This document shows positions 2,443 through 27,729 of a stretch of DNA of 53,699 nucleotides, piece after piece. This stretch comes from Prorocentrum cordatum (Eukaryota). The notes under the pieces are model-generated. The model ran no database searches, was not told the origin of the DNA, and was given only the letters and a program-made list of their open reading frames with translations. The stretch covers positions 62,001-115,699 of the forward strand of contig CAUYUJ010000297.1 of the NCBI GenBank assembly GCA_963575745.1, given 5' to 3'. How positions within the stretch are numbered: position 1 is the first letter of the stretch; each line of letters starts with the position of its first letter. The translations under genes were made by a program, and so were the position numbers.

Positions 2443-4035
2443 AGTGCCGCCGAAGGATAACTCGGGCAGGTGGATTGTCAAATGCGGTACAGCAGATATG
2501 GCTAGTGGCGTCATATTTACTGATGGAGCATGTAATAATTTCTGGTACTGGCCCGAAGCGTCTCGTGCGGGATGGGGGTTCGCTAAGCTGGTGGATGATA
2601 AGATTGATCTTCTAGTATATGGTGCTCTCCCTGGGCCTGTGCAGTCCTCACCGCGGTCTGAGCTATATGCCTTCTTGCAGGTTTTGCAGATAGCCGTCTT
2701 GCCTTTATTAGTATACTCAGATTATAAGGGCCTGATCGAAGGCCTCACCTGGGGACCTCATTGGTGTAGACATCCTTCTAGGCCCAATGTTGATCTTTGG
2801 GGCCTAATTTGGACCAAGATCGACGATCTAGGAGGCCTCTCGGATAGTTTAGAAGTTCGACACGTGCGAGGGCACCAGCGAGGCATGGACGTCTTGGCGC
2901 GGGGGAACCGATGGGCCGACTTTGGGGCGACCAGGGGGCGGGATTTGCACTCGGTTCCCCGACGGCATGTCAAGGCCATGCGGATTGCTCTGAAGTCTGT
3001 TCGGTTGGTTTTGAAATCGCAGGTTGAAGCGTTGTTGGCCTTCGCTGCACATGGACGCGTCACTACTGTGCCGCGACGGGGCAAGAAGCCCACTCAGGCC
3101 AGGCAGGCCAAGAGTGATGCTGACCCCACCCCCCTCCCTCTCACCTGGCTCACGCCTTCTCGCAAGTGCCGAAGCGCCTCATTTGGAGGTGTAATTTCTG
3201 CATGAAAGGTGCCACGGCCAAGAGAGCGAGGGATCGTCTATCTCGTATAGCTTGTTTTGCCCGTGTCCTGGCGTCGAGGTCTTTCGACATGAGTTCGAGG
3301 GAGCCCCCGCGGATGCAGGGATGTGTCGCAGGTGACCAGGCCAATGCGGACTCCTCCCAGGATCTCACGGGCCCAGCCAGTGTCCCGCAGGAGGCCCCCA
3401 CTAAGCGAATGGGTGATTTTCTGGCTCGCTCAGGCTCGTCTGATGATAGGGACGTGAGGCCGCGTGTCACTTTTGCCCCAATTCAACGCGTCTTGGCTCC
3501 AGATGCCGATGAGCTGGCCTTGGCGCAGAGGCAAATCCTGGAGCCAAACTCTAAACGCAGGAAGATGGGCAGGCCCGCGCTGGCTGAGTCTACTGTCCCT
3601 GCGTGCCCGCTGCCCGCGTCTGGTATCGTCGGGCACTTATGTGCGCGTGGCCACCGATGTTGGGTCAGCCCAGGTCAGGTTGTTCTGTGCATTAAGTGTG
3701 GCTTTTTACACTACTGGAGTTGCAGGCCACCTGCTCCTGGATTGCACTGTCCCTCAAGTTTTGTCGGAGAGGGCTGCCCGTAACAGGAAGTTATTTTTGG
3801 AAGGCCTTCACCCAGCTGACGAGGGTGCCACCAGCAGCCGTCGAATTCCCGTTGCTCGTCCATTGCTCGCCAGTGACCCAGAGGTCACATGGCTAAGGCT
3901 GGGATGAGCTGCCTATGTTTGAGCCCGTTTCTGGTTTCTGGTCTCGGGGCTCCTTGGGCTTTCTTTCTGGGCGGCCTCCTGCCGCTTCGGCCCCTGGGAA
4001 ACTCCTGGTCGGCCAATTCGCTTGTGTTTTGTTTG
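2443..4035 (+). mobile_element. 5'-truncated non-LTR retrotransposon: RNase H domain plus frameshifted Cys-rich C-terminus
   Basis: RNase H1-like motifs are intact at about 2510-2950 (IFTDGAC, RAGWG, SSPRSELYA, VYSDY, DLW, HVRGH, GNRWAD). CxxC motifs (CNFC, CIKCG) follow in shifted frames, with a stop at 3905-3907. The element starts right after a (CCT)n tract. The 3' end is approximate. Confidence 0.8.
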
Positions 4036-6997: not shown

Positions 6998-7637
6998 GTG
7001 CGGCCCGCCACGCCGCCGCCGGCGGCGGCCGCCGTCGTCGGGGTGCCGCCGCCAGCGGCGGCGAGGCTGACGACGGCGGCGACGGGGATGATCGCGGGGG
7101 GGAGGCGGATCCTCAGATCTGATGCTGCAAAAAGTTGCAACATCGCAAGAAATCACCACTGGAGCCCCGGACCCAATCCTCTTGCGTCATTTATCGAGCC
7201 GGATCGATCCGTGAGGGTCCCAGGGCCCGAAACCATGCGAACACGCCCGTTGCGGAATGATTCCAATGCCAGGGTCTCAGGCGATGGGGGGAGGCGGAGA
7301 AGGAGCGTCCTCTTACCCCCCTTCTGCTGCATGTGAATCCGTGTGCTGTGGACACTCCGATCGACCGATCTCTTGGGCTGGGGGCAGCAGAAGGCGCACG
7401 AGTTGGGGGCAGGAGGCGGGGGAGCAGGCGGTGTAGGCGGACGGGGGGAGGGCCATGGGGAGACGGTAAGCTAGGGGCGCTCGCGCCATATCTGAGGCGG
7501 GGCCGCGCCGGGGCAGGGAGGGGGCGGGGGAGGGAGGGGGAGGGGGAGGAGGAGTGAGGGGGAATAAGTAGGATGATGGTGTTGATGATAACGATGACGG
7601 TGGTGATGACGATGACGATGGCGAACACGATGACCAG

Positions 7638-7669
<32 letters not shown>

Positions 7670-7928
7670 TCATGCTGACGATGATGACGACGAGTATGGT
7701 GATGATAGTGATGATGATGATGATGATGATGGTGATGATGACGCTGACGCTGATAACGATGATGCTGATAATGATGGTGATGGTGATGATGATGACGAGG
7801 CTGCTGCTGATGATGAGGATTAGGATGGCGGTAATGATTGTGGTGATGGTGATGATGGTGGTGATGGTGATGATGGTCATGATGCTGATGATTGGGATGA
7901 TTGATGATGGTGATGATGGTGATGATGG

Positions 7929-7977
<49 letters not shown>

Positions 7978-8129
7978 ACGGGTGGTGGTGGTAATGACGT
8001 CAATCGTGGTTACGTCAATCGCTGTGATGCTGACGTGGAGGATGCTGCTGCTGATGGTGAGGGTAATGCCGAGGATTCTCCTGCTGATGATATAGATGAT
8101 GATGATTATATTGATGATGTTGCTGTTGC

Positions 8130-8165
<36 letters not shown>

Positions 8166-8580
8166 CGACAAGGACGACGACGATGATGATGGTGATGCTG
8201 GTGATCATGATGCCAGCGAGGACGATGATGGTGGTCTTGATATGATGATGACGATGCTGATGATCATGCTGCTGATGCTGGTGTTGAGGCTGCTGCTGCT
8301 GATGGTGATGATGAAGATAATGATGATGATTATGATGCGGAGGATCAGGACACTGATAACAATTATGGTGATGATGATGGTGATAATGATGAGGGTGATG
8401 CTGATGATGATATTGTTGATGATGACGACGACGATGATGATGATGCTGATGATGACGATGATGGTGGCGCGTACGACGATGACGATGATGCTGATGTCGA
8501 CGACGATGATGCTGATGATGATGGGTGATGATGGTGGTGGTGATGATGATAATGATGATGATGACGACGACGACGACGAC

Positions 8581-8616
<36 letters not shown>

Positions 8617-8964
8617 AATCGTGGTGATGGTGGTGGTGGTGATGATGATGATGATGCTGATGATGATGACGATGATGCTTCTGCTGCTGATGATGATGAT
8701 TATGATGACGATGGTGATGATGGTGGTGATGAGGATGACGTCGATGGTAGGGACGACGATCGGCATCAGAGAGGAAAACGTAGCAAGCATAATGTTTCGC
8801 AGGTCCGCGCGGATCTCTTGCATCGGCGCTGGATCTCCCATCCCTGGCGCGCGGAGAGCGCCATGGACGGCGCTGAAGGCGCCGCTAGGCGGGTCCAGCG
8901 CCGATCCAGGAGATCCGCGCGGACCTCAGAAAGGTTACGCTTATGCCCCTTTTTGCTCCTCTAG

Positions 8965-9342
8965 TCCAGGATGCCCCCTCGGGGCCCCTGGAGGCTTCCA
9001 CGGGGATCTGCCGGCGGTGGCGACGGCAGCGCAGCGGCGGGGCGACGGGCGACGGGCGATAGACGGCGGGGAGAAGGCCGCCAGTGGAGCAAGATCAGGG
9101 GGGAACAATGGGGTTTCTGTCGACCCCCGAGAGAAGCAAGAGGTCCTGATACTGATACGTTCCATGATGTCCAAGTTTTCAAGGATTTCCAATCTATTCT
9201 GATGCTCCACCGGGGCTGCAGAAACGAGGGCCGCTAGATGTTTTGGAATTCCTTGGCGATATCGGTGTTTGCCCTATTGCAGCAAACCTCCATGGCCTGC
9301 CCCCGCCAGTGTCCTTCAGGGGGCCCCAGGGGGCATCCAGGG
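8965..9342. mobile_element. MITE-like element with ~30-bp TIRs inside the 8760-9580 interruption of the (GAT)n array
   Basis: GGATGCCCCCTCGGGGCCCCTGGAGG pairs with CCTTCAGGGGGCCCCAGGGGGCATCC. Confidence 0.65.
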
Positions 9343-9981
9343 GGGGAGGCTTCCGTAGGGCGCTGCGTGATGGTCATCTCGAACATGGCGCACGCCTGTC
9401 GACGCAAGCGTTGCAGCAGAGTCTGAACCGAAGACGCCTGCGGCGAACCACCGCCGCCCCCCCTTCTTGTCGGGAAACGCCCATGTGGCCACACGCTGAG
9501 CCAAAGACTGGCCAAGCTATTGGACGACGTGCTCCCCCAGCCGTTGTGGAACACCTTGGGGGACCACTTGGGGGAGGAAGAGAGGATGATGCTGCTGATG
9601 ATGATGCTGATGAATGCTGATTATGATGACGATGACGATGACGATGGTGATGATCATGATAACGACGTTCATGATAACGATGATGATGCTACTGCTGATG
9701 ATGATTATGATAGTGATTCTGATGACGACGATCATGATGATGTATGATGATAGCGGTGGTGGTGATGATGATTACGATGATGACGATGACGATGATGATG
9801 CTGCTGCTGACAATGATGATGGCGATGCTGATGGTGATTGTGATAGTGATGGCGATGCTGATGATGACGATGATGATGGTGATGATGCTAATGATGGTGA
9901 TGATGCTGAGGATGATGATGATGATGCTGATGCTGATGCTGTTGATGACGATCATGATAATGATGCTGTTGCTGATGCTGA

Positions 9982-10031
<50 letters not shown>

Positions 10032-10744
10032 CCATGACGAGGAGGAGGATGATGATCTGATGATGATGGTTATGATGATGATGACTATGACGTTAACGAT
10101 AACGACGACGGCACTGATGATGACGATGGTAATGATGATGCTGTTGTTGATGATGGTGATGATGATCACCATCATGTCAATGATGGTGATGGTGACTGTG
10201 CTGGCGATTCTGATGTTGATTGCGATGGTGATGATGATGCTGATGCTGATGCTGACGATGATGATGATGATGATGACCATGACGACGAAGAGGATGATGA
10301 TCTGATGATGCTGATGATGCTGATGATGATGATGATGATTATGATGATGACTATGACGTTCACGGTAACGACGACGATGATGACGATGGTAATGATGATG
10401 CTGTTGTTGATGATGGTGATGCTGATCACCATCATGTTAATGATGGTGATGGTGACTGTGCTGGCGATTGTGATGCTGATTGCGATGGTGATGATGATGA
10501 AGATGATGATGATGCTGCTGATCATGATGGGGATTCTGATGCTGCTAATTGTGATGACGATGCTAATGACGCAGATGCCGACGATGATGATGAAGATGCT
10601 GATGATGCTGATGATGATGATTATGATGCTGCTGCTGATCATGACTAAGATGGTAGTGCTGATGATGATGATGGTGCTGATGATGAGGATGATGGTGATG
10701 GTGATGGTGATGGTGATGGTGATGATGGTGATGATGATGAGGAT

Positions 10745-10815
<71 letters not shown>

Positions 10816-10816
<1 letters not shown>

Positions 10817-11360
10817 CGCCCCAAGGACCACAGTTTTTTCCTCGTGGGCCCAGAACGACGTTGTGAAGTCTTGAGCAGACGCTCAAGAGACAACCGCCTT
10901 GGGATCCAACGAGGTTCGCGCGGATCCAATTTTGGTGTTCGTTTCTGCGTCGGTGGGTCCGGTTTCCGTCCGCGCGGATCCGATTTCGGATTTTCAGGAT
11001 TCGCGTCCAGTCTTTTTTTATATGGCGGATCCGATATCTACCCCGTCTAAAATTCATATAATTGAACTAAAACGGGCAAGCGGACGAAATCGGATCCGCG
11101 GACCCCGGAACCCGCCCATGCTAAGATTCTATGGGGGAAGGGGGGTTCGGTCATCAACTTCCCATGATGGGCCCTGCGTTGTCCCTCGCACTCCCATCAA
11201 CTTTCCGCGAGCGCGGGTCCCACTCAACATGGATGCGTTTCTCTCCTCCCGGTTGCTGCACGCAGCTCGTCCAGACGCCGTGGGTTCGGCGGCGCCGATG
11301 TAATCTCGCGAACTCTTCATCGCCATTCTCACCTCAAGAGGAAAATTTGTCGTCCTGCGT
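10816..11360. mobile_element. TIR element inserted in the (GAT)n array, with internal CGCGGATCC repeats
   Basis: ACGC..AGGACCACAGTTTTTTCCTC pairs with GAGGAAAATTTGTCGTCCTGCGT; ATG on both flanks. Confidence 0.65.
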
Positions 11361-11714
11361 ATGGTGATGATGGTGATGCTGATGATGCTGATGATTTGTT
11401 AAGATGGTGATGGCGATAATGATGCTGCTGTTGCTGCATGGTGACGATGCTGCTGCTGCTGATGATGCTGATGACGATGATGATGCTGATGATGATGCTG
11501 GTGATTATGACTGGTGGTGGTGGTGGTGATGGTGATGAGAATGATGATGACGATGATGACGTTTCTGACGACGGTGAGGATGACTACGACGATAGTCATG
11601 ATGATGCTGATGATGATAATGCTGCTGCTGTTTCCGATGAGGATGACGACCGCGATGACGAGGACGACGACGACGGCGAGGAGGAGGAGGAGGAGGAGGA
11701 GGGCTCGGGTCCCT

Positions 11715-12329: not shown

Positions 12330-14143
12330 CCGCCCAGGTGCCCGGGTGCCCGGGTGCCCGGGTGCCCTGGTGCCCAGGTGCCCAGGTGCCCGGGTGCCCG
12401 GGTGGCCGGGTGCCTTATAGTCCTATAGCCCTATAGCCCTATAGCCCTATAGCCCTATAGCCCCATGGCCCATAGCCTTGTAGGCCTATAGCCCTATAGC
12501 CTTGCAGCCCTCTAGCCCCATAGCCCAATAGCCCTGTAACCCTATAGCCCACTAGCCCTATAGCGTTAAAACCTTATAGTCCTATAGCCCTATCTCCCTA
12601 GAGTCCTATAGCCCCATAGCCCTGTAGCCCTATAGTCTGTTAGCCCTATAGCCCCACGGCCCTATAGCCCTAAAGCCCTATGGCTCAATTGCCCAATAGC
12701 CCTATAGCTCCATAGCCCCATATCCCTATAGCCCTATATATATATGGCCCTATAGCCTTATAGCCTCATAGCCTTATAGCCTTATAGCCTTATAGCCCTA
12801 TAGCACTTTAGCCCTATGGTCCTATAGCCTTTTAGCCCCATAGCCCTATAAACTCATAGCCCTATGGCCCTATAGCCCTATAGCCCCATAGCTCTATAGC
12901 TCCATAGCCCCATAGCCCTATAGACCTACAGCCCTATAGCCCTGTGGCCCTACAGCCCTGTGGCTCTATAGCCCTATGGCCCTATAGCCCTATAGTTCCA
13001 TAGCCCCATCCGTAAGGGCTTCGCCCCCCTGCCGCTGGCCCCGTCTCTCGGATAATGGGCTATGCAAGAGCTAAATCATGAGACCTCGGCGCCGCCGTGA
13101 AGCAGCATCGACAAGAGAGATTGATATTATGATGATCTTGTTTATGGTTTCGGGGACGCGAATGTAGCGTAATTTCAACGTAATTTAGAAGGGTTGATGG
13201 CTTCGGAGACATAGTATAATCTACGAAGGTTTCTGGCTTCGGATACACGAACAGTGCGTAACTTGCAAGGGTTTATGGCTTCGGGGTCGCAGCTATAGAG
13301 TAACTTACGCAGGTTTATGGCTTCGGAGACGCGAATACGGTGTAATTTACGAGGGTTTCTGGCTTCGGATACGCGAATATAGTGTAATTTGATAGGGTTT
13401 ATGGCTTCGGGGTCGACGATCTTGCTTCATTTACGCAGGTATGGCCTCGGAGACGCGAATCTTGTAATTTGCAAGGGTTTATGGCTTCGCATACGCGAAT
13501 ATCGTGTAAATTGAAAGGGTCTATGGCTTCGGGGACGCGAGTATTAAGTCATTTTCAATGGTTGATTGCGTCGGGAACGCGAACATTGGGTAATTTACGA
13601 GAGTTAATGGTTTCGGAGACGCGAATCCATTACATAGTTTTATGGCTTCGAGGACGCGAACATTGCTTGATTTGCAAGCGTTTGTGGCCTCGGGGACGCA
13701 AATATTGCGTAACTTACCATGGTTTATGGCTTCGAGGACACGAAGATGGTGTATTCTGCGAGGGGGTACGCGAATATTGAGTAATTCACGAGGGTTCATG
13801 GCCTCGTGGACGCGAATATTGCGTAATGTAGGAGGGTTTATGATCTCGGGGGCGCGAATTTCATGTTTTTTTTAAATGTCTCACGCCCCCCCCCAGAAAT
13901 TTTGAGACCCCTCCCAGGAGACGCTAACCAGGTTGATTTTTGGCTCCCCCCCCTCGCGCGGTCTACAACAAGGAGCAATAATACAACAAGAAGCAGAACT
14001 ATCACATTGGAAACTGGAAACTTGAACTGGTGCAGGGAACAGCAAACCCTCGTCTTACAGCCTGGTGGCCCCACAGGGGACTGGCGGATAGCCCTATAGC
14101 TCCACTGCCATATAGTCCTATAACCCCATAGCACTATAGCCCT
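12330..14143. repeat. 8-bp minisatellites: (GGTGCCCR)n at 12330-12413, then (TATAGCCC)n at 12414-13008, resuming at 14089-14143
   Basis: Direct inspection. Confidence 0.9.
13009..14088 (-). mobile_element. Non-autonomous Helentron/Helitron2-like element, family A copy 1, with an internal 42-bp tandem array (about 13150-13862)
   Basis: Ends TCCGTAAGGGCTTCGCCC... and ...GGCCCCACAGGGGACTGGCGGA are shared with 32562-33740. Inserted at an A|T in a TAGCCC(C/T)A satellite; removal restores the satellite. Confidence 0.75.
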
Positions 14144-14608: not shown

Positions 14609-15433
14609 GAGCAACCAGTGTGGTGCGACTGAAGATTGCACCGCATCGATTGCACTGCGGAGATTGCCCCGCATTGATCGGCCCTTCACAGATTGCTCTG
14701 CATAGCCCTCTCGCCCCCCAATTGCGGCGAAACTATACTCCTTCTCGTCCCTGGAGGTGATATCCCGCCCCCAGGCCCCCCAGTGCGGGACCCCACCAAG
14801 ATCATAATAAGGTTCCTGAGAATTCCTGAATATTCTTGGGAATTCCAAAATGACTCTTGAAGGATTCTTGAGGATCCGTGGCTCCCACCGCCCCTCCCCC
14901 CCGAGGAATTATTTAATGAATTGAGGTGCCAGGGATAACGGGGGGATGGCCCATAAAGGGTTCCCAGGTCTATATTACACTGCGCACTCTGCATCGCGCA
15001 TTTGACATCTTAGAGTATGCTAGGACACACCGTTTGGGGTCCACGCCGGCTAACACATACATGTCGGTGTGTATGCATACAGGTATGTGTATAGGTAAGT
15101 GTATGCTTACGTGCACTTGTACTTGTACGTCTGCGTGTACGTGTAGGAGTAGGTGTGCGTGTGTTGACGCCCTCCAGCTTGCCGAGATGCTTTCCAGACG
15201 CCCTGCGAAGCCGCACTGGGCTGCTCTTCAGGCGCGAGGGTTTCTGACAAGCCTCGCCGCCGCCTGCCACGGCCCGCCCCCTCTCTCGCCTCCCCTCTGG
15301 GGCGCGCCGCCGGGAGAGGCGACCGCCCGCGAGCCTGGCCGCACTTCGCCGGGGGGGGGGGCGCACCCGCCGAGCGCGCCCGCGAGCCCAGCCACCCTCC
15401 GCGGGGCGGGTGGGACCCGCCGAGCACGCAGGG

Positions 15434-15515
15434 ATGGCCCTGGCCCTGGACCTGAAGGCCCTGAAGTCCCGGCTCTCGAGGGAGGGCGCGCAGTCTGGCG
15501 CCGTCACGGCCTCCC
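15434..15515 (+). CDS. Exon 1 of a YfaP/DUF2135-like - ankyrin - BRCT multidomain gene (MALALDLKALKSRLSREGAQSGAVTAS-L)
   Basis: ATG at 15434 and GC3-rich codons. RLSREGAQSGAVTASL resembles the RLxREGAxxGxVxxSLxW start I recall for YfaP/DUF2135-like domains. The 3' boundary can slide from 15515 to 15521. Confidence 0.8.
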
Positions 15516-15520
15516 TCATC

Positions 15521-15840
15521 TCCGGGGGTTGCCAAGAGGTGCTCCGGGCCCCAACGTGCCCCTGGCTCCCAGCGCCACTCTCGAGCCCCTGGGGCCCTCT
15601 GGCGTCTCGCTGCGGAGAAACCACGACTGAGGATTACGGGGGCCTTTGCTGGGCCCCGGGACCGTCAAATAACGACTCAGGATGAAAAGCCAGTCCCGGG
15701 GAAGGGGCCCAGACCTCTGGGGAGCCACGCTGTTGAACAGTCACGCCTCGCGGGGGGTGCTCTGGAGGACAGCGGCGCCTCCCTTTAGGCAAGCTGGGGC
15801 CGCCTTGGGGCCCGGCCGCCCTTTCTTGGAGAACGCCCGG
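15521..15840. mobile_element. Diverged copy of the 26810 MITE forming intron 1, with a nested ~135-bp repeat (about 15611-15745)
   Basis: Colinear similarity to 26810-26974; ends CCGGGGGTTGCCAAGA / TCTTGGAGAACGCCCGG are complementary; the nested part resembles 28795-28925 and 29858-29945. Confidence 0.75.
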
Positions 15841-15917
15841 TGCTCTGGAACGACCCCAGCGACCTGGACCTGCACGCCCGCGTCAAGCGGAACGGGCAGG
15901 CCCACACGGAGCACATA
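15841..15917 (+). CDS. Exon 2 (LWNDPSDLDLHARVKRNGQAHTEHI)
   Basis: Carries the WNxxxDLDLH motif of YfaP/DUF2135-like domains and joins exon 1 in frame if 325 nt are removed. Confidence 0.85.
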
Positions 15918-16029
15918 GCCAGCTGCCTGCGGCAAGTCCCGCCACCGTGCCAGCCCAGCGTTCGGGGTGGCCGGGGGAGGCCGCAACGTGCAACGCTTCG
16001 GGCCTCTGGAAGGCTCTGGGGGCCTGTTG

Positions 16030-16222
16030 TCGGGGGCGGCAAAGAGGGGGCTGATGATTAGGGGGGGGGTGGATATCATGGCGAGGGCCATGATATTTCC
16101 GCAGATTTCATGGCGCCTCTTCTTATTCCATTACGTCCCTGGCCCCCCCGCTGGGCCGCGCACATGCCGCCGGTCATGATTTGCATCTCCCTCTTGGACA
16201 CCCCTCTCTTGGCCGCTCCCGA
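16030..16222. mobile_element. MITE with TCGGG...CCCGA TIRs (about 21 bp) and 5-bp TSD TGTTG
   Basis: TGTTG at 16025-16029 and 16223-16227; TCGGGGGCGGCAAAGAGGGGG pairs with CCCCTCTCTTGGCCGCTCCCGA. Confidence 0.85.
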
Positions 16223-16277
16223 TGTTGGGTGCCTCCCGAGGGGGCTGGGAGGCTGCCTCACTGCGTTGGAGCCGAGG

Positions 16278-16390
16278 TCGAAGGGTTGCCAGAGGCCGCC
16301 CTGTCCCAAGGTGCCCCCGGCTTCGTGCCACGCTCCGGAGCCCACGGGGCCCTCTGGGCTTTGCGAGGGGTGCTCTGGAGGCCGTGGGAG
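16278..16390. mobile_element. 3'-truncated copy of the 26810 MITE
   Basis: GGGTTGCCAGAGG..CCCTGTCCCAAGGTGCCCCC...GGGGTGCTCTGGAGGCCGTG matches 26812-26916. Confidence 0.75.
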
Positions 16391-17600
16391 GCGGGAGGCT
16401 CCCCTGGGCCCTGAGCTCTGAGCGCTGCAGTTTTTTCACACCGGGTTTTCTCGATTTGTGTCGGGACCTGGGGCCGTTACAGATCGATCCGGCTCGAAAG
16501 ATGGTGCAGAAAGGTGGGGTCTGGGGCTGCGATGTTGCATCGTTTCGTAGTGTCTGATTTCAGGAAACGTCCTGGGGACACCCTGGGTCAGGGGGCACGT
16601 CTGGTAACACGGGACCAGAGCCCTTTTTCTCTAGGCCTCCTAGATGGGGTCCGAGTAGACGGGTCGGAGGATCGCGCCACAACGCCGACGCATCGGCGAT
16701 GCGGCTCGATGTGGAGTCCGAGTTTCTTCGCGCCGACGTCGCCGATGCATCGCCGACGTGGCCGGTGCATTGCCGATGCATTCGTGATGCGTCGACGATG
16801 CTGCGCGACCCTCCGACCCCACCTGCGCAGACCCCAGCTGGGAGGCCTCTGCCTGCGGAAGAGTGGAGGACGGGACGAGCAGAAGCAAAAGCGGAGGTTC
16901 GCGTTTGTGCGGACCACCTCTCGGGTCGGCGTCGGGCGCCCCACCCTCCCCCGCACTCCTGGAAGGGGGGCCCCGGCCGCCACGGGGTCGGCGCCAGAGG
17001 GCGGGCCAGCGCCGGCCCGAGGCATCTGCGCGGGCCGCCGCATTTCTGCGGCCCTCGTGAGCAAAGTCGTGGCTTCGTTGGGTGGCCGTTTTCGTATTCG
17101 TTGCTCTGCCGATCGGCGCGGGCCCTCGGTCCCCCCCCCTCCCCCCCTCTGGGGTTGATGCTCCAGCCTACCTCTAGCCTTGACCACCAGAAAGAATTTC
17201 GAGCACCAGAAGAGTACTGAAACTCGAGGGTTTTCACGTGTCGGGCCCTGGGAGACACTCGTCCGACACTGCTTCGACACTGTTCCGACACTCTTTCGAC
17301 ACTTCTCCGGGTGCTCGAACGTATTTCTGGGATGTGATCCTTTCGTACGACGGGAGCAACATAACTCTGGGGTAAATCTTGGCTGTGTTGGCGCCTGCTT
17401 CAAGCAGGTGGAGTCTCCCCGACGGGGCGCACTGCTGCAAACAGGCGCGCCAAGCAGAGGTCCAGAGCCAATCCCCCCCCTCCCTCCCCCCCTCCGCCAA
17501 ATGTCGAAACGCCGAATAAGAAAACGCTCACAAGGAGCAATGAGATACAACAGCCGCAGGGGTGCCCGACGCGCGCCTGCGCTGCGAGTGCGGTGGCGGA

Positions 17601-18185
17601 TTCTACGGCCACAAGAAGGCCGCCGGGGGGTACCTCGACGTCGACATGAACGTCCGGGACTCTGGCAAGGGCTTCTCCCTGGAGCCAGTCGAGAACATTT
17701 TCTGGAAGAACCCTCCTGGAGGGCAGTATAGGGTCTATGTGACGAATGCTGGCACCAAGAGCCATCCCACGAAGTGGGACGGGAAGTTCACGGATCAGGC
17801 GAGGAGCGTACCGTTCAAGGTGTTTCTCGACAGGGACGGTGAGATGGAGGAGTTCGAGGGAGAGTGGTCCCCGGGCTGCAACGAGATAGAGGCCTTCACG
17901 TTCGAGGTCGAGGGTGACGGCAGCGTCGCCGACACTGGAGGAGGGGGCAATTATTTGGTCTTCCCGCCAGAGGATGACAAGACGACGTTCAAGGAGCTCT
18001 GCGACAAGCACGGGGTGCCGTGGAGGATCGGCGGTGGGTTCTACGCCGTGGCCCGCAAGGAGAAGATCCAGGCCGGCAAGGAGATGCTGCTGCAGCACCT
18101 GGCCAGCAACAATTTCACGATCGGGGGGCAGAAGTGCAGGGATGCCCTGGGGTGGTCCGCGGGAGAGGTGAACATGGGCCCCAAG
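17601..18185 (+). CDS. Exon 3: rest of the YfaP-like domain (FYGHKKAAGGYLDVDMN...PVENIFW...GQYRVYV) and the start of a second domain (GGGFYAVARKEKIQAGKEMLL...CRDALGW)
   Basis: 195 open codons with strong GC3 bias and LDVDMN / PVENIFW motifs; ends at an AAG|GA donor. Confidence 0.9.
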
Positions 18186-18522
18186 GATGCCCTCGAGCCT
18201 CCTCCTCCTCCTCCTCCTTCCCCACCTTTTACAGTCAAGACGCTGATGTAAGGACGGCTTTGGGCTTAGGAGGGGCTCTGGTTTTCGGACCGTTCCCTGG
18301 ATCTAGGTCTGGGAACCCACTCGTGGCCGAGGCTCGCCGTGGCCAGGAAGGCCCCTTCGGTTCTTGTTCAGCGGTCCATGTGGCAGCATGATGGCTGTAC
18401 TCCTCTTCCTGCCCCATTCCTCCTTCCCCCTCTGTCCACCCTCCCTGCATCCTCCTCCGTCCTCCTTCTCCCCCTTCGCGTCAGCCTCGTCTTGGTCGCC
18501 GTCCACCTCCCTGGCCCCAGAG

Positions 18523-19053
18523 GACATCCTCGAGGGTCACCGCCTGTTCGTGCAGTCCACCTCCGCCAACCGTGTGATCCAGCCGGGCACCCACGTGCTC
18601 TTTGAGGTCGACGACGCGATCTACGCCAAGCACCAGAAGACCAGCGAGATCGCGGAGGACGAGCACAAGAAGACCGGGGCCATTGAGCCGAAGTCCCCGG
18701 CCAAGGCTAAGGCCAAAGCCGAGCCCAAATCCCCAGCGAAGGCGAAGGCCAAGGCCGAGCCCCCAGCCAAGGCAAAGGCGAAGGCCAAGGCCGAGGCAGG
18801 CGCCATCTCGGAGGCCGACCAGCACGCGTTTTTGGATCTCGCCAAGGACTACAACTGGGACGCGGTGAAGCGCATGGTCAACGAGAAGCCCCTTATTGTC
18901 TCGGCGCACCCTGCCCAGAGGTGGTCCGCGCTTCACCAGGCGGCCGCCTCGGGTGACGAAGGCGTCGTCCGCTTCTTGCTGGACAAGGGGGCCTCGGTCG
19001 ATGTCACGAACAAGGAGGGCCAGACCCCGGCAGACGTTGCCGCGAATGCGAAG
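18523..19053 (+). CDS. Exon 4: LFVQSTSANRVIQPGTHVLFE motif, Lys/Ala/Pro linker and ankyrin repeat (RWSALHQAAASGDEGVVRFLLDKGASVDVTNKEGQTPADVA); may instead run on to the TAG at 19090-19092
   Basis: AG acceptor at 18521-18522, in frame with exon 3; clear ankyrin consensus (ALHxAAxxG...V..LL..GA.V...N..G.TP). Confidence 0.9.
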
Positions 19054-20082
19054 ATTAAACAGAATTACGCCGCATCCGCCGACGCCTTTTAGTTTGCTAT
19101 TTCATGCATGTTTCATTTCGGTTGTCAGTCTTGCATTGCCGTACGGTTGTGATGAAGGTGCTGAACGACTCGCACGTGGCTTCTGTGCTGGCGGTTCCAT
19201 GCAGCCCTACCCGAATGTAGTGTGAGCGGGGAGTTACTTCGCTGCCTCTTGCCTTTTCTCCTCCTCGTGCTCATTCTCCCTCCCCTCTTCGGTGCTCTCG
19301 TGGGGCCCTTTTGTCTTGGGAAACCTTGGGGCTGTCTTGGACTTCCTTGGGAGCTCTCTTGGGCCGCCTTGGGGCCCTCGTGGCCACCTCGGGGTCTCTT
19401 GGGGGCGTCTCGGTACCCGCTTGGGAGCGTTGGGTTGTCCTGGGGCTCTCTTGGGCCGTCGGCCGTCCGGGGCTCCCGAGGCCTGCTTGGAGCCGGGTGA
19501 GGCGCGCGGCCGCCGTGCAACAGAACAGCACGTGGTGGCTGCCTTTGGGGTGCCGTCTGGGTGCCGTCCCAGCCTCCCGACGCGCCGACTTTGTCGCGAC
19601 CTGGGCCCCCCGAGGTCTGGGCCCCTTCAGGCAGGAACAAAAACACCGCCGAGGACCAGTGGAAGTGCCGTCTGTGTGTCGCGACGCGGGGGCCTCGGAC
19701 GCCCCAGAGGTCTGAGCGGCCCGCATCGAGAGCGGCGGTGCTGCAGTGGACGGTTCGCCCTGCAGCATGTGCAACCGTTGCATCGTGGTTGCGACCCCCG
19801 TGCAAGGCGCCTGCAAGTGTGTTGCAAGCGTCGTCTTGGTCCATCTTCGGGCCGTCTCTCGGAGGGGGGGGAAAGGTACCAATACCGCTCCGCTGCTCGT
19901 CCGCACGGCTGGCTTCTCCTCGAACATCTGGTCAGACTGTACCGCGGGAGAGGTGAGGGGGGCATCTGGAGGGGAAAAACACAGACACATTTCATCGACA
20001 TGGGAGCATATAGGAGAAGTGGGGGGAAGACGAAAACAGTGAAAATATGGGAAATATGGGGAATCCTTGGATTTGTGTCTAT

Positions 20083-23000
20083 TTCCCCACATGTTTCGTG
20101 GGGTTCTGGTTTTCTTCCCTGCCGCGTCGTATCCGCGTCTCACACCCGCACACACCTCCCTCTCCCGCAAAGCGTATCAGACGTGACATACATATATACA
20201 TACACAGGCACACCGACACAGACACATACACACAGACACACAGACACACACAGACACAAACACGCATACACACATACACCCTCACTCACGCGCAACACCT
20301 GCACGGCACGTACATGAGACACCAAAGGAGGTGCGCAGGGGGTGGTCCCTGAGCGCGGCCGCTATCCGAGCCGGTTGTCCAGGGCAAAGCAGGAGTGGCA
20401 CTTCCTTGACACCATAGGGGGTGCGCAGGAGGTGGTCCCTGAGAGCGGCCGCTATCCGAGTCGGTCGTCCAGTGCATAGCAGGCGTGGCATTTTCTCGAC
20501 ACCACAGGGGGTGCGCAGGGGGTGATCCCTCACCGCGGCCGCTATGCACGACGGTCGTCCAGTGCATAGCAGGCGTGGCATTTTCTCGACACCATTGCGG
20601 GTGCGCAGGGGGTGGTCCCTCAGCGCGGCCGCTATGCACGACGGTCGTCCAGTGCATAGCAGGCGTGGCATTTTCTCGACACCACAGGGGGTGCGCAGGG
20701 GGTGGTCCCTCAGCGCGGCCGCTATGCACGACGGTCGTCCAGGGCATAGCAGGCGTGGCATTTTCTCGACACCATGCGGGTGCGCAGGGGGTGGTCCCTC
20801 AGCGCGGCCGCTATGCACGGTCGTAGCAGGCGTGGCATTTCTCGACACCACAGGGGTGCGCAGGGGGTGGTCCTCACCGCGGCCGCTATGCACGACGGTC
20901 GCATAGCAGGCGTGGCATTTCTCGACACCATGCGCAGAGCATGCACGGGTCGGCATAGCAGGCGTGGCATTTTCTCGACACCACAGGGGGTGCGCAGGGG
21001 GTGGTCCCTCACCGCGGCCGCTATGCACGACGGTCGTCCAGTGCATAGCAGGCGTGGCATTTTCTCGACACCACCGGGGAGGGGGTGGTCCCTCACCGCG
21101 GCCGCTATGCACGACGGTCGTCCAGGCATAGCAGGCGTGGCATTTTCTCGACACCATAGGGGTGCGCAGGGGGTGGTCCCTCAGCGCGGCCGCTATGCAC
21201 GACGGTCGTCCAGGGCATAGCAGGCGTGGCATTTTCTCGACACCACAGGGGTGCGCAGGGGTGGTCCCTCGCGGCCGCTATGGCGTCCAGGGCATAGCAG
21301 GCGTGGCATTTTCGACACCATAGGGGATAGGGCGGGTGGCGACAGGGGGTGGTGGTCCCTCAGCGCGGCCGCTATCCACGACGGTCGTCCAGGCATAGCA
21401 GGCGTGGCACTTTCTCGACACCACAAGGGGGTGCGCAGGGGGTGGTCCCTCAGCCGGCCGCTATACGACGTCGTCCATAGCAGGCGTGGCATTTCTCGAC
21501 ACCACAGGGGGTGCGCAGGGGGTGGTCCTCACAGACGGTCGTCCAGGCATAGCAGGCGTGGCATTTTCTCGACACCACAGGGGGTGCGCAGGGGGTGGTC
21601 CCTCACCGCGGCCGCTATGCACGACGGTCGTCCAGGGCATAGCAGGCGTGGCATTTCTCGACACCATAGGGGGTGCGCAGGGGGTGGTCCCTCACCGCGG
21701 CCGCTATGCACGACGGTCGTCCAGGGCATAGCAGGCGTGGCATTTTCTCGACACCATTGGGGTGCGCAGGGGGTGGTCCCTCACGCGGCCGCTATGCACG
21801 ACGGTCGTCCAGGGCATAGCAGGCGTGGCTTTTCTCGACACCACGGGGTGCGCAGGGGGTGGTCCCTCACCGCGGCCGCTATGCACGACGGTCGTCCCCA
21901 GGGCATAGCAGGCGTGGCATTTTCTCGACACCATTGGGGTGCGCAGGGGGTGGTCCCTATGCACGACGGTCGTCGCATAGCAGGCGTGGCATTTCGCAGG
22001 GGTGGTCGTATGCACGACGGTCGTCCAGTGCATAGCAGGCGTGGCATTTTCTCGACACCATTGGGGGTGCGCAGGGGGTGGTCCCTCACCGCGGCCGCTA
22101 TGCACGACGGTCGTCCAGTGCATAGCAGGCGTGGCATTTTCTCGACACCATAGGGGGTGCGCAGGGGGTGGTCCCTCACCGCGGCCGCTATGCACGACGG
22201 TCGTCCAGTGCATAGCAGGCGTGGCATTTTCTCGACACCATAGGGGGTGCGCAGGGGGTGGTCCCTCACCGCGGCCGCTATGCACGACGGTCGTCCAGTG
22301 CATAGCAGGCGTGGCATTTTCTCGACACCACGGGGGTGCGCAGGGGGTGGTCCCTCACCGCGGCCGCTATGCACGACGGTCGTCCAGGGCATAGCAGGCG
22401 TGGCATTTTCTCGACACCATAGGCGGTGCGCAGGGAGTGGTTCCTCACCGCGGCCGCTATGCACGACGGTCGTCCAGTGGCACTTTCTCGACAGTCGTCC
22501 ACAGGCGTGGCATTTTCTCGACACCACAGGGGGTGCGCAGGGAGTCCTCACCGCGGCCGCTATGCACGACGGTCGTCCAGGGCATAGCAGGTGTGGCATT
22601 TTCTCGACACCATTGGGGGTGCGCAGGGGGTGGTCCCTCACCGCGGCCGCTATGCACGACGGTCGTCCAGTGCATAGCAGGCGTGGCATTTTTCGACACC
22701 ATTGCGGGTGCGCAGGGGGTGGTCCCTCACCGTGGCCGCTATGCACGCCGGTCGTCCAGGGCATAGCAGGCGTGGCACTTTCTCGACACCGTGAAGGTTG
22801 CGCAGGGGGTGGTCCCTCACCGCGGCCGCTATGCACGACGGTCGTCCAGGGCATAGCAGGCGTGGCATTTTCTCGACACCATTGGGGGTGCGCAGGGTGT
22901 GGTCCCTCACCGCGGCCGCTATGCACGACGGTCGTCCAGGGCATAGCAGGCGCGGCACTTTCTCGACACCATAGAGGGTGCGCAGGGGTTGGTCCCTCAC

Positions 23001-23452
23001 CGCGGCCACTATGCACGACGGTCGTCCAGGGCATAGCAGGCGTGGCGCTTTCTCGACGCCAGACGGGTCGCGCACGGGGTGGTCCCTCAGCGCGGCCGCT
23101 ATGCGCGCCGGTCGTCCAGGGCATAACGGGCGTGGCATTTGCTTTACACCACAGGGGGTGCGCAGGGGGTGGTCCCTCACCGCGGCCGGCATGCGCTCCG
23201 GTCGTCCAGAGCATAGCAGGCGCTGCATCTTCTCGACGCCACAAGGGGGTGCCTTGGGGGTGCGGTCGCTATCTGTTTCGGGCTCGCAAAGTGTGGCTGG
23301 CGCGGCGCTTCTCCTCTTCCACCTCTCCTCTTGAGTGGCGTCACCAACGGTATCGGCGGGGCAACGGCCACCAACATCATTCCCACATGCTTCTATTCAG
23401 CTATCATCACTCCAGCCATGATATAAGTACGTGGGGTTCCTCGGTAGCGTAA
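20083..23452 (+). mobile_element. Helentron-like element, family B1, carrying the 90-bp satellite
   Basis: 5' end TTTCCCCAC-loop-GTGGGG-TTCT; 3' end CCATGATA...GTGGGG...GTAATT. It splits a copy of the ATATGGG dispersed repeat at a T-rich site (compare intact copies at 5818-6040 and 25415-25563). Confidence 0.7.
20318..23262. repeat. 90-bp tandem satellite, roughly 33 units, each with a NotI site and a GCTATGCAC...GTGCATAGC hairpin
   Basis: TCGTCCAGTG recurs at 22021, 22111 and 22201; indel-rich zone at about 20760-22020; diverged units at both edges. Confidence 0.95.
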
Positions 23453-23747
23453 TTATTTGTGTGTCCCAGGGCCCCTTTGGAGCAGCAGTGTCGGTGCTTC
23501 TCTTGCCCCCCCCCGTCTGGGGCCGTCCCGGGCCCTCCTGCGCCCCGCCCTGGGGCCCTCCTGGCCTGGCTTGCGGCCCCGACGCACGGTCCGTGCCCCC
23601 TACGGGAGAGCCCGGCTCCTCCTCCTCCTCCTCCTGCTCCTCCTGCTCCTCCTCCTCCTCCTGCGCCTCCTCGTCCGAGTCTGCCAGGGTGGATCCCGAG
23701 AGGAGGCTCGCACGCAGGGTGGCCCCGACGAGGGGAGGGGTCCGCGG

Positions 23748-24056
23748 ATCAAGGCCATGCTCAAGAAGAGGAGGGCCGAGGCGGAGCCAGAGGGCAGGCC
23801 CAAGGCGAAGGCGAAGGCGAAGGCCGGGGCGAGTCTTGCCGGGAAGAAGGTTGTCTTTACAGGGACCCTGTCGACGCCGCGTGCCACCGCCACGTCGGCT
23901 GCTCAAGCGGCGGGGGCAACGGTGCTCAGCGCGGTATCTGGCAACATGGACGTGCTGGTCGCTGGCCCGGGTGCCGGCGCGAAGATGCAGAAGGCAGAAG
24001 ATCTTGGCAAAGAGGTGTGGGATGAAGACAAGTTCAAAGCTGCGGTGGGGCTCTGA
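23748..24056 (+). CDS. Terminal exon, or a stand-alone gene from ATG 23757: BRCT domain (LAGKKVVFTGTLSTPRATATSAAQAAGATVLSAVSGNMDVLVAGPGAGAKMQKAEDLGKEVWDEDKF)
   Basis: Matches the BRCT pattern of NAD-dependent DNA ligase/RFC1/PARP types (GKxxVFTG, GA.V..SVS..TDxLV.G..AG.K..KA..LG..V..E..F). TGA at 24054-24056 is followed by lower-GC, UTR-like sequence. Confidence 0.9.
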   Translation: MKAMLKKRRAEAEPEGRPKAKAKAKAGASLAGKKVVFTGTLSTPRATATSAAQAAGATVLSAVSGNMDVLVAGPGAGAKMQKAEDLGKEVWDEDKFKAAVGL

Positions 24057-24823
24057 GGCTCTGAGGCGCATCGTTAGCACGTGAGGCATGTAGCGCATTG
24101 ATTCTTGACATGCGAGCCCGTGTTTCCGGAGCTGGAGGGCAGTCTTCATGGTCATTGCATTTTGGTTAGTTGACCCAGTTTCTTGATCGTTGTTTCTATT
24201 GCCCTCTGCTGGAGTTGGTTGACGTGCTCATAGCGTGGGGTTTTCCTCTGGTCCCTGCGAAAGGCACTCAGGGCCTGCCCCTGCCTTGCGAAGCATGAAG
24301 TGTACATGTCTCTGAACAGATGCATGGGGGTGGGCAGTCGCAGCGTTTGCAACAAGTGCTGCGAGTCGTTCTTGTAGGTTTTAGCCCATGTCCTACTTTC
24401 ACCATTCGTCGGGGTGCGGCTATCAGCGGACAGACACCACTGGCGGTCATCTGCTTTCAAACAATGCCCCCCCTGCTATCTGCCCACTGTCTGCTGCTGC
24501 TCCTCTTTCCGTCCTCCTTTCTGTTCCTCCGTCCTCGCTATCTGCTGCTTCCTCCGCCTCTTCCTTCCCCTCCTCTTTCTCCAACCTCCCCCTCCTCCCC
24601 CTCCTTCCCCTCTCCCTTCAACCTCTCTCCAACCAACTCCTCCTCCTTCTCCTCCTCCTCCTCCTCCTCCTCCTCCTCCTCCTCCTGCGGGCGATTGGCC
24701 CAGATAGCCGTTCAGAAGGCAGGAGGCCCTCCAAGCCTTAGGCCCCAGACCCCCGACTCCGCGACCTTTTCCCAGCTTGGGCCCCAGGAGGCCTGGACCA
24801 GTGGTGTGCCCCGCGTGTTTATT

Positions 24824-24824
24824 T

Positions 24825-24903
<79 letters not shown>

Positions 24904-24905
24904 GG

Positions 24906-24952
<47 letters not shown>

Positions 24953-25101
24953 GCTGCTGTTGTTGCTGCTGCTGCTACTGTTGTTGTTGTTGTTGTTATT
25001 GTTGTTGTTGTTGTTGTTGTTGTGGTTGTTGTTGTGGTTGTTGTCGTTGTTGTTGTTGTTGTTGTGGTTGTTGTTGTTGTTGCTGTTGCTGCTGCTGCTG
25101 C

Positions 25102-25134
<33 letters not shown>

Positions 25135-25158
25135 AGTTGCTGCTGCTGCTGCTGCTGC

Positions 25159-25199
<41 letters not shown>

Positions 25200-25230
25200 T
25201 TTTTGTTGTGTGTGTGTGTGTGTGTGTGTG
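24824..25230. repeat. (GTT)n/(GCT)n followed by (TG)n microsatellite
   Basis: Direct inspection. Confidence 0.95.
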
Positions 25231-25850: not shown

Positions 25851-26809
25851 GCCAGCCGTCGCCGCGGCCACGTCGGGAGCGCGCCGCGTCGGGCCGCGAC
25901 GGCCAGAGCCTGCGGCGCATCTGCGCGGGAGGTTGGGCTCTCGACCTGGCCCACGTCTCCCCGCTCCTCCCCCCCTGCTCGGCTCTGTTTCCACTCGTTC
26001 AGGGCTCCGCCCCCGGGGACGACCGGAGACGGTCTCTGCCTCCTCCCACTCCACCCGTCCCCTTGCAGGAAGGGTGGTGCCGTACGCGGGCGGCTCGGCG
26101 CTCCCTGTCCCTCCTTGGTCTCATCCCGCCTCGTGCTCCTCCTCCGTCCCTCCCCTCATCCTCCTCCCTCCTTGTACTCCCCCTCTGCTCTCTATCCTCC
26201 CGCCCCTCCCACTACTCCCTCCCAGTCCTCCCCGTCCTCTTCCTCCCCGTGTCCTACCGTCGCCCGCCCCCGTCGCCTGGCCCCTTCTCCCCTCCCCGAC
26301 CCCCCCTCCGCCGGTCTTCTGGCAGCGGGCGCTCCCTTCATAGAGTTGTGGCCGCCGCCAATCGTTGAACAGGACCACCAGCTCGAGGCTCTGTGGCGCA
26401 TCGGTCTACGCCTTCGCCGCCCTCCTGCACCCCTGGCGGCGAGCAGGTGAAGGGGGCCTGCTTGTGTGCGAGGGCGGTGCGGGGCGGGGCCGCTCTCGGG
26501 ACGCTGGAGTCCTGGGTGCTGTCGGGCGGGGCTAGGGCAGGAGCGCTCTCAGAGCGTTCTGGACTGAGAAGGCCGCGGCGCCGGACACTTTTTCCAGAGC
26601 CACCGAGGCATAGATCCCCGATTTGTCTCTTTCCGATTTTGTCCCTGCCACGGCCTCGTCTTCTGTTGCACGGGGGCTGCACCGCCCGCTGGCCCTTGTC
26701 GTTTTAATGGCGGCGCGCACGACACGGTGGGGCGAGTCAGGGGTGTCCGCGGTTCGGTTGGCTCTATTCGTTTGGTCGGCTGTGTCGTTGCTGCGTCGCT
26801 GCGCCCTTC

Positions 26810-26974
26810 TCGGGGTTGCTAAAGGTGCCCCTGTCCCAAGGTGCCCCCAGCTTCTCGCTCCACTTTGGAGCCACTGGGCCATCTGGGCCTCGTGAGGGGT
26901 GCTCTGGAGGCCGTGTGGGCCTCCTCGAACATCCTGGGGGCACCTTGGGCCAGGGGCACTTCTAGCAACCCCGA
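26810..26974. mobile_element. MITE with ~40-bp TIRs (TCGGGGTTGCTA...TAGCAACCCCGA) and 5-bp TSD CCTTC
   Basis: Near-perfect TIRs; CCTTC at 26805-26809 and 26975-26979. Confidence 0.9.
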
Positions 26975-27729
26975 CCTTCGGAGCTGCTCGCGGCCTGCCG
27001 GTTTCATCGACGGCTCGGTCGGTTTTCGGTTGTGCTGTCGCCGTGGACGGTCCTCGGCGAGTGCAAGGCTGGGGCCTTCTCCGAAACCGTCCCGCCTTCT
27101 TCTCCTCCTCCTCCTCCTCCTCCTCCTCCTGCTCCTCCTCCTCCTCCTGCTCCCCCTCCCTTTCCTCCTCCCTCTCCTCCCTTTCCTCCTCCCTTTCCTC
27201 CTCCTCCCTTTCCTCCTCCTCCCTTTCCTCCTCCCTTTCCTCCTCTTCCTCCTCCTCCTCCTCCTCCTCCTCCTCCTCCTCCTCCTCCTCCTACGAGGTC
27301 TTCGTGGGGGACTCCAGGTCTTGCAGAAGGCTCGTGCCGTCCTCGGAGGCCCCTCCCTCGTCGCTCCACCCCGCGACCAAAGTCTGCTCGAAACGGGTTC
27401 CTTTCCGAGGACATCCTCGTGCGGCGCGGAACAAAAAAGTCCGCACGACGGCTCCATAAGCTATGGGTCGACGCTCGCGCGACGACGCTCCAGAGTCAGC
27501 CCGACGTAAATCCGACGTAGTCCCGACGTCGTCCGACGTGAACCCGACGTAAGTCCGACGTGGATCCGACGTAGATCGGGACCCAAGTTGCCGCGCGAGG
27601 CCTCCAGGATTTCCCTCATGAGCTTCTTTGACCCCTCCCTGGGACCATCCTTGCCAGCTTTTAGAGCCTCGTCCAGCCGTGGCGACGAGAACGGCCAGAA
27701 ACGCCCGAAACCTTTCAAACTATGCCACT

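Follow-up and report, generated by a model that had tools for sequence, protein, structure and literature searches.

The 53,699-nt stretch of Prorocentrum cordatum DNA analyzed here (the window; contig CAUYUJ010000297.1 of assembly GCA_963575745.1, positions 62,001–115,699 of the forward strand) is eukaryotic and G+C-rich in composition, with many tandem repeats, and carries on its forward strand a gene whose first intron is a copy of a miniature inverted-repeat transposable element (MITE). The features are collected in Table 1, in which, as throughout the text, coordinates are window positions; a slash within a splice motif marks the cut. The protein has an N-terminal domain (WNDPSDLDLH...GGYLDVDM...EPVENIFW) to which the Pfam scan assigned no family, and its last exon (approximately 23754–24053) matches the portion of the relative P0006 that scores as BRCT. 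The N-terminal domain is joined to BRCT in other relatives, and in P0014 and P0015 it is fused to the dinoflagellate viral nucleoprotein family DVNP (PF19060 is listed for both, and our own scan covered P0014 only). These fusions suggest, from the domain arrangement, a chromatin-related role.

Table 1. Coordinates of the gene, its introns and the associated repeats in the window.
Feature	Position	Strand	Remarks
Exon 1	15434–15520	+	ATG at 15434; RNA joint leaves at 15518–15521
5′ copy of putative target-site duplication, TCATC	15516–15520	+	Exonic, codes part of L-I
Intron 1	15519–15843 (leftmost) or 15520–15844, 15521–15845, 15522–15846	+	325 nt, skipped by RNA contigs
MITE copy in intron 1	15521–15840 (320 nt)	+	Same family as 26810–26974, with extra middle part
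5′ arm of terminal inverted repeat	15522–15554	+	Imperfect stem from 15522; perfect 11-nt run 15544–15554
Piece of second repeat family inside MITE copy	15637–15709	+	Other copies 28822–28890, 29844–29914, 38424–38465
Alternative canonical AG/G acceptor	15787–15788	+	Used by no RNA contig
3′ arm of terminal inverted repeat	15805–15840	+	Perfect 11-nt run 15805–15815; stem end 15840
3′ copy of putative target-site duplication, TGCTC	15841–15845	+	Intronic
Exon 2	15844–15916 by RNA contigs (reading 15846–15917)	+	Codes WNDPSDLDLHARVKRNGQAHTEHI, begins WNDPSDLDLH
Intron 2	15917–17599 (AG..GG) or 15918–17600 (GC..GA)	+	1683 nt, skipped by RNA contigs
Exon 3	17600–18185	+	RNA contigs and relatives; reading opens at 17601 with FYGHKKAAGGYLDVDMN
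Intron 3	18186–18522	+	RNA joint 18183 to 18521, 4 nt ambiguity; GA..AG/G placement; internal control
Exon 4	18523–19059	+	ILEGHRLF near start; K/A-rich run and ankyrin repeat; end inferred from relatives only
Last exon	23754–24056	+	BRCT-like C terminus; stop 24054–24056; start inferred from relatives only
Reference MITE with 5-bp target-site duplication	26805–26979 (MITE 26810–26974, 165 nt)	.	CCTTC each side

One of the relatives, P0010, is the NCBI entry CAK0789753.1 (“unnamed protein product, partial [Prorocentrum cordatum]”, 182 amino acids), which is 98% identical to the window; the other relatives retrieved in the protein searches are from transcriptomes of dinoflagellates and from marine metatranscriptomes. 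CAK0789753.1 matches 18072–19089, begins inside exon 3, and omits the K/A-rich run of exon 4 that is kept both by the relatives and by the open frame, so the public gene model looks truncated and mis-spliced. Neither of the two protein searches brought up a full-length NCBI entry of P. cordatum for this gene. Among metagenome contigs no close Prorocentrum copy was found; the 48 loci recovered were all distant (29–59% identity over short segments).

The motif G(A/G)(V/I/L)(T/S)(A/V)(S/A)L(I/L/M/A)WNDP(S/A)DLDL(H/Y) was uninterrupted in every one of the 11 relatives whose sequence includes the N terminus, namely seven of the ten fetched proteins (the other three begin downstream) together with P0017, P0018, P0019, and P0034. 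In the window, exon 1 reads ...REGAQSGAVTASLI up to 15520, ending in ...GAVTASLI, and exactly 325 nt must be removed for the joining of exon 1 to exon 2 to restore the motif, which is the length that a first-pass annotation, made from the letters alone, had calculated. Over the 14 cut positions between 15512 and 15525, no 325-nt cut has GT, GC, or GA at its 5′ end together with AG at its 3′ end; the same annotation had claimed that no sliding position does, and the claim held over this range.

The reference MITE at 26810–26974 is a near-perfect palindrome that folds into a single long hairpin of -129.1 kcal/mol, compared with -82.7 ± 4.6 kcal/mol for shuffled sequences (z = -10; 0 of 200 shuffles folded as well). 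The family has the features by which MITEs are recognized: its members are short and devoid of coding capacity, they have terminal inverted repeats and a target-site duplication, and there are several copies, three of them within the window, with ends TCGGGGTTGC...GCAACCCCGA and 5-bp duplications. In the intron 1 copy, the 5′ 92 nt match the 5′ half of the reference MITE at 69 of 85 aligned bases (score 75; mean 10.3 and maximum 30 in 300 shuffles), and the 3′ 100 nt or so match its 3′ half at 64 of 91 (score 50; mean 11.7 and maximum 27 in 300 shuffles). The middle part of this copy (approximately 15613–15740) has no counterpart in the reference MITE, and 15640–15709 is 80% identical to a repeat of another family at 28822–28890. 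A third copy of the MITE family, truncated at its 3′ end, lies at approximately 16278–16420 inside intron 2 and is identical to 26810–26974 at 110 of 139 aligned bases.

These results confirm that intron 1 is transposon-derived. The first-pass annotation had described a MITE at 26810–26974 with a 5-bp duplication, a diverged copy of it at 15521–15840, an insertion nested in that copy, and base pairing between the ends of the copy. All four descriptions agree with the measurements: CCTTC flanks the hairpin on both sides, both arms align far above the shuffles, some 70 nt of the extra middle part derive from the other repeat family, and the ends pair. The end-to-end duplex of intron 1 was calculated at -69.0 kcal/mol, compared with -44.6 ± 5.4 kcal/mol for 300 shuffles. 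The longest perfect inverted repeat is 11 nt (15544–15554 with 15805–15815), was equaled in none of 1000 shuffles, and begins 26 nt from the 5′ end and stops 29 nt from the 3′ end of the intron in its leftmost placement.

The same annotation had taken the many substitutions in the intron 1 copy as a sign that the insertion is old, and this part of its argument was not sustained. Both arms of the copy carry CCGGGCCCCAA where the reference MITE has CCCTG(T/G)CCCAA, and arm-to-arm identity is comparable in the two elements (63 of 82 in the intron 1 copy and 62 of 76 in the reference MITE). These two observations indicate that part of the divergence is a subfamily difference predating the insertion, and the insertion may therefore be younger than had been assumed.

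We searched assembled RNA contigs for the junctions of the gene. Exon 3 is contained in 20 public runs from eight studies, and four of these runs (X14, X5, X10, and X1, from four studies; X14 is registered as polyA RNA-Seq from a marine metatranscriptome) were examined over 15150–18660, with intron parts lacking contig cover not being counted as evidence of absence. In X14, X5, and X10, from three studies, a single contig per run, 1.5–2.0 kb in length, starts in the 5′ untranslated region (15332–15384), continues through exons 1–4, and carries the joint 15518 to 15844, skipping exactly 325 nt. In X1, a contig covers the gene from 17603 onward only, with none over exons 1 and 2, and carries the joint of intron 3. 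Compared with the window, the exon sequence has no differences in X5, X10, and X1 and one in X14; for X5, X10, and X14 the comparison extends over approximately 990 nt including 50–100 nt of the 5′ untranslated region. The intron 1 joint has an ambiguity of 3 nt (TCT), so that the cut lies between 15518/15519 and 15521/15522, and the possible intron ends are TC..GC, CT..CT, TC..TC, and CC..CT. The first-pass annotation had predicted removal from the RNA without canonical splice sites and had named GC 15509 or GT 15539 with AG 15787–15788 as the canonical alternative; those sites are present in the sequence, and the contigs bear the prediction out, none of them using the AG at 15788.

The same contigs remove intron 3, an ordinary GA..AG/G intron, which indicates that they represent spliced and processed RNA. 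The ordinary dinoflagellate pattern, G[T/C/A]..AG(/G), is thus found at intron 3 and at neither intron 1 nor intron 2 of the same transcript. Sequence from the interior of intron 1 was found in X5, where a 161-nt contig of depth 2 matches 15634–15795 with no substitutions and one gap, compared with a depth of 49.8 for the joined form; no contig inside intron 1 was found in X14 or X10. The depth-2 contig is what would be expected from a trace of unspliced precursor.

Transcripts of this gene carry a second non-canonical joint, that of intron 2, in the same contigs as the first. It runs from 15916 to 17600 in X14, X5, and X10, with one ambiguous letter, and both placements are non-canonical. A canonical intron 2 from GC 15918 to AG 17588 was considered and rejected; it would insert CGGG in the protein and is absent from the RNA contigs. 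Intron 2 is a composite of several repeats, among them the truncated MITE copy, and its longest inverted repeat is 9 nt (15939–15947 with 17591–17599, abutting the 3′ joint), a length reached in 37 of 1000 shuffles and hence borderline. A near-identical piece of 37–40 nt (15919–15958), starting 1–2 nt inside intron 2, also occurs in other contigs of X1, X10, and X14, which are 425–581 nt in length, have depths of 8–14 (X1 and X14), and have unrelated flanks; no second copy of this piece was found within the window. Its occurrence amid unrelated flanks suggests that intron 2 may begin at the border of a repeat that is also present in other transcripts.

In regard to intron 4 (19050–23756, approximately 4.7 kb), close relatives read ...AKIK directly followed by (A/T)MLKK at the junction, and none of the seven placements that give this reading (19054–23747 to 19060–23753) has a GT, GC, or GA..AG pair. 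The canonical GA..AG/G placement at 19050–23737 would read AANA-GPRIK-AMLKK. The borders of the intron carry a decayed direct repeat of approximately 10 nt, GAAGATTAAA / GCGGATCAAG.

We consider it probable that intron 1 is a MITE-derived non-canonical intron that is removed at the RNA level in a core dinoflagellate, in the manner of the introner elements of Amoebophrya. In the mechanism that we propose, a palindromic MITE, a non-autonomous DNA transposon with a 5-bp target duplication, would have inserted into the L-I-W codons of a conserved nuclear-protein gene; the locus would be transcribed, and the element together with one copy of the duplication (325 nt) would be removed exactly from the RNA, which would put the mRNA back in the reading frame that preceded the insertion. 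Where the inverted ends form a stem, the cut would fall among the few unpaired bases at its foot, with no G[T/C/A]..AG pair involved. In the predicted structure the stem foot is 15522:15840; a single internal loop contains all the possible cuts, at 0–3 nt beyond the foot on the 5′ side and 3–6 nt beyond it on the 3′ side. By analogy with what has been proposed for Amoebophrya, the paired ends would place the two exon ends side by side, so that a spliceosome less strict in its recognition of intron ends could join them; a non-spliceosomal pathway, such as that discussed for euglenid nonconventional introns, would be a less likely form of the same mechanism. We infer that the RNA originates from this locus, that splicing of the RNA accounts for the removal, and that pairing of the ends contributes to it.

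A bulge-helix-bulge geometry, as recognized by tRNA-endonuclease-like enzymes, was rejected on the predicted structure only: the two cuts would face each other in one 7 × 6 internal loop, which has a 3-bp pairing of the exons on one side and the intron stem on the other, and two 3-nt bulges separated by a 4-bp helix were not seen. Removal in two steps was likewise rejected. A first step from GT 15539 to AG 15788 would leave 75 nt with ends that are still non-canonical, and a first step from GC 15509 to AG 15788 would delete the exon bases 15509–15518, which are kept in the mRNA.

Several observations weigh against this interpretation. The 5-bp duplication that the first-pass annotation had called decayed does exist as the flanks TCATC and TGCTC, but these agree at only three of five positions and are weak evidence when taken alone. 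The whole intron 1 fold is not exceptional for G+C-rich DNA (z = -0.98; 18 of 100 shuffles folded equally well). The end-pairing energy of intron 2 shows no excess (z = 0.07), and because intron 2 is non-canonical without significant end pairing, hairpin pairing is neither a general explanation nor the sole determinant of the cut. The earlier description of intron 1 as hairpin-defined stands as far as the pairing of the ends is concerned; that this pairing sets the cut is a possibility. The RNA evidence consists throughout of assembled contigs, in which rare forms are dropped and junctions carry no read counts, and the evidence for an intron 1 precursor is a single depth-2 contig in one run, over repeat-derived sequence. 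Finally, contigs alone cannot prove the source locus, since an empty insertion site and precise removal from the RNA yield the same mRNA.

This last point is the basis of the strongest rival explanation, in which the source of the mRNA is a second gene copy whose exons are identical but which is free of the MITE and of intron 2, and the copy in the window is a transposon-disrupted duplicate that is silent or non-productive. A sequence from which the transposon and one target duplication are missing is an empty-site sequence, and the contigs cannot discriminate between the two origins; dinoflagellate genes are often multi-copy, with extensive duplication in P. cordatum (PMC10666404), the insertion need not be old given the subfamily difference, and the 5′ edge of intron 2 appears to be the edge of a repeat. 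Against this, the window copy and its twin would have to differ by two insertions (325 and 1683 nt) within 400 nt and otherwise show no point difference, the mRNA being identical to the window over approximately 990 nt including the 5′ untranslated region. The decay of the duplication and the composite nature of intron 2, with its truncated MITE copy, are unlike a very recent event, and an RNA library contains a trace of intron 1 sequence. The lack of a full-length NCBI protein for such a twin argues in the same direction, albeit weakly, as both the assembly and its annotation are incomplete. For these reasons we favor the locus in the window as the source of the RNA and regard a twin copy as unlikely. 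The partial NCBI model and the restriction of the published pipeline to GT/GC/GA-AG introns are both consistent with a locus that could not be modeled and with the lack of an easily annotated intron-free twin.

A still less probable explanation is an artefact of reverse transcription, in which the mature mRNA retains the MITE and the enzyme jumps the hairpin between short direct repeats (TCT or the remnants of the duplication). Template switching by reverse transcriptase across hairpins between short direct repeats is an existing artefact, and a strong stem flanked by a 3-nt direct repeat is its classical configuration. The near absence of contigs from the interior of intron 1 (none in X14 and X10, and a single one in X5, with a depth of 2 where the joined form has 49.8) means, however, that such a jump would have had to occur almost every time in each of three independent libraries, whereas fragmented, random-primed libraries should still yield reads within a retained element. 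Furthermore, intron 2, which is 1683 nt in length, shares 1 nt at its borders, and has no significant end pairing, is joined in the same contigs and would be left unexplained, and retention would place a stop codon at 15686–15688 of a conserved and intact gene.

Canonical splicing from GC 15509 or GT 15539 to AG 15788 as the main pathway is the most improbable of the explanations: the sites exist and the frame is kept (GAVT followed by ASWGRLGARPPFLGERPVLWNDPSDLDLH for 15509/15788), but 16–25 MITE-derived residues would be placed inside the motif, the motif is free of insertions in all 11 relatives, and the joint is in no contig of the four runs, the three that cover the region all skipping 325 nt. 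The canonical isoform may exist as a minor form, since contigs drop rare variants.

We compared intron 1 with known unusual introns. In Amoebophrya A25 and A120 (Farhat et al. 2021, PMC7789003), RNA-supported introns have an inverted repeat of 8–20 nt, a direct repeat of 3–5 nt, and arbitrary end dinucleotides, and U1 snRNA was reported as missing or not detected. Intron 1 resembles these introns in four respects: it is RNA-supported (joint in three of the four runs) without fixed end dinucleotides; it has an inverted repeat between its ends, which at 11 nt falls in the 8–20 nt range and lies within approximately 30 nt of the ends; it has a direct repeat over the exon/intron borders, TCT, which falls in the 3–5 nt range and makes the cut ambiguous; and it is one member of a MITE-like repeat family that has no transposase gene (two further copies in the window) in a dinoflagellate lineage. 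It differs in its host, which is not a parasitic syndinian but a core dinoflagellate (Prorocentrales) that lives freely, is photosynthetic, and has a multi-gigabase genome, and in its element, which is a near-perfect palindrome of 165 nt (320 nt with the insert) and not a short intron with terminal repeats of 8–20 nt.

The introners of Symbiodinium and Polarella glacialis (Roy et al., preprint 10.1101/2020.10.14.339549) take their GH (GT, GC, or GA) and AG from the element or from the duplication, for example NAGGH or AGGH. The element studied here is likewise a DNA transposon with inverted ends and a target duplication (4–8 nt in those introners, with a 5-nt class included) that has become an intron in a gene. 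In contrast, its duplications are CCTTC and TCATC, and no GH..AG is found at the RNA joint. Dinoflagellate introns with identically repeated intron boundaries (IRIB; Mendez et al. 2015, PMC5032977) also have a border repeat, of 2–9 nt, that is kept once in the mRNA and leaves the cut ambiguous; their repeats contain (A)GG and are compatible with AG/G splicing, whereas the TCT repeat of intron 1 contains neither AG nor GG.

Euglenid nonconventional introns (PMC11282704) share with intron 1 the non-canonical borders, the pairing just inside the ends, the junction repeats resembling target-site duplications, and a suspected MITE origin. Their signature, CAG at +4 to +6 pairing with CTG at -8 to -6, is absent from intron 1, in which, according to where the cut is placed, the first base of the stem falls at +1 to +4 and the last at -4 to -7; a similar geometry is obtained only at the leftmost cut (+4/-4). 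The euglenid introns are excised as circles and removed after the conventional introns (PMC11282704).

The genome paper of P. cordatum (PMC10666404) assigns “introner elements” with inverted repeats to 2.4% of introns, and its read mapping and gene prediction admitted GT/GC/GA donors with AG; it gives AGG for only 79.7% of acceptors, a value that a referee queried. In the literature we found no paper describing introns with RNA support and ends other than G[T/C/A]-AG, either in Prorocentrum or in another core dinoflagellate, with Roy et al. consulted as the 2020 preprint, and the reviews consulted (including PMC11282704) name RNA-supported introns of this kind among dinoflagellates for Amoebophrya only.

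The remaining features of the window were examined by a Pfam scan of its 126 long open frames elsewhere, in which only an RNase H match passed the curated cut-off, so that the window offered no second gene for a check of introns. The open frame concerned, at 2108–3202 on the forward strand (PF00075, E = 1.1e-08), could be an exon of a host gene or part of a retroelement. Tandem arrays were found with a 102-nt unit in two blocks (45005–46854 and 49928–51919), with a 90-nt unit at 20228–23354 inside intron 4, and with an 8-nt unit (CCCTATAG-like) at 12380–12905; long GAT/GGT-rich arrays of trinucleotide and 9-nt units occupy 7496–11700, and a TGT array lies at 24738–25210.

A broader interpretation, which we put forward only tentatively and think doubtful at present, is that Prorocentrum, and perhaps core dinoflagellates at large, may be able to clear transposon insertions of any kind from coding exons at the RNA level, through a pathway that recognizes paired ends or borders and not splice-site dinucleotides. 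Such a pathway might be independent of the standard spliceosome, and the introns that it removes might form a sizeable hidden class missed by annotation restricted to G[T/C/A]-AG. Two of the three RNA-covered introns at this locus would belong to this class, and a further intron may belong to it by homology.

If the RNA comes from this locus, a bloom-forming, free-living dinoflagellate can neutralize a transposon in the middle of a conserved motif by having it excised from the RNA without a recognizable splice signal. Among dinoflagellates, such an ability has so far been documented only in two strains of the parasite Amoebophrya, and it would here extend to a new lineage. The locus offers a compact test case, since a single expressed gene has two non-canonical introns and one canonical intron within 3 kb. 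If the interpretation is correct, it would help to explain how insertions are tolerated in the genes of transposon-rich, multi-gigabase dinoflagellate genomes, and the gene models of P. cordatum, which allow GT/GC/GA-AG introns only, would be systematically truncated or wrong at introns of this kind.

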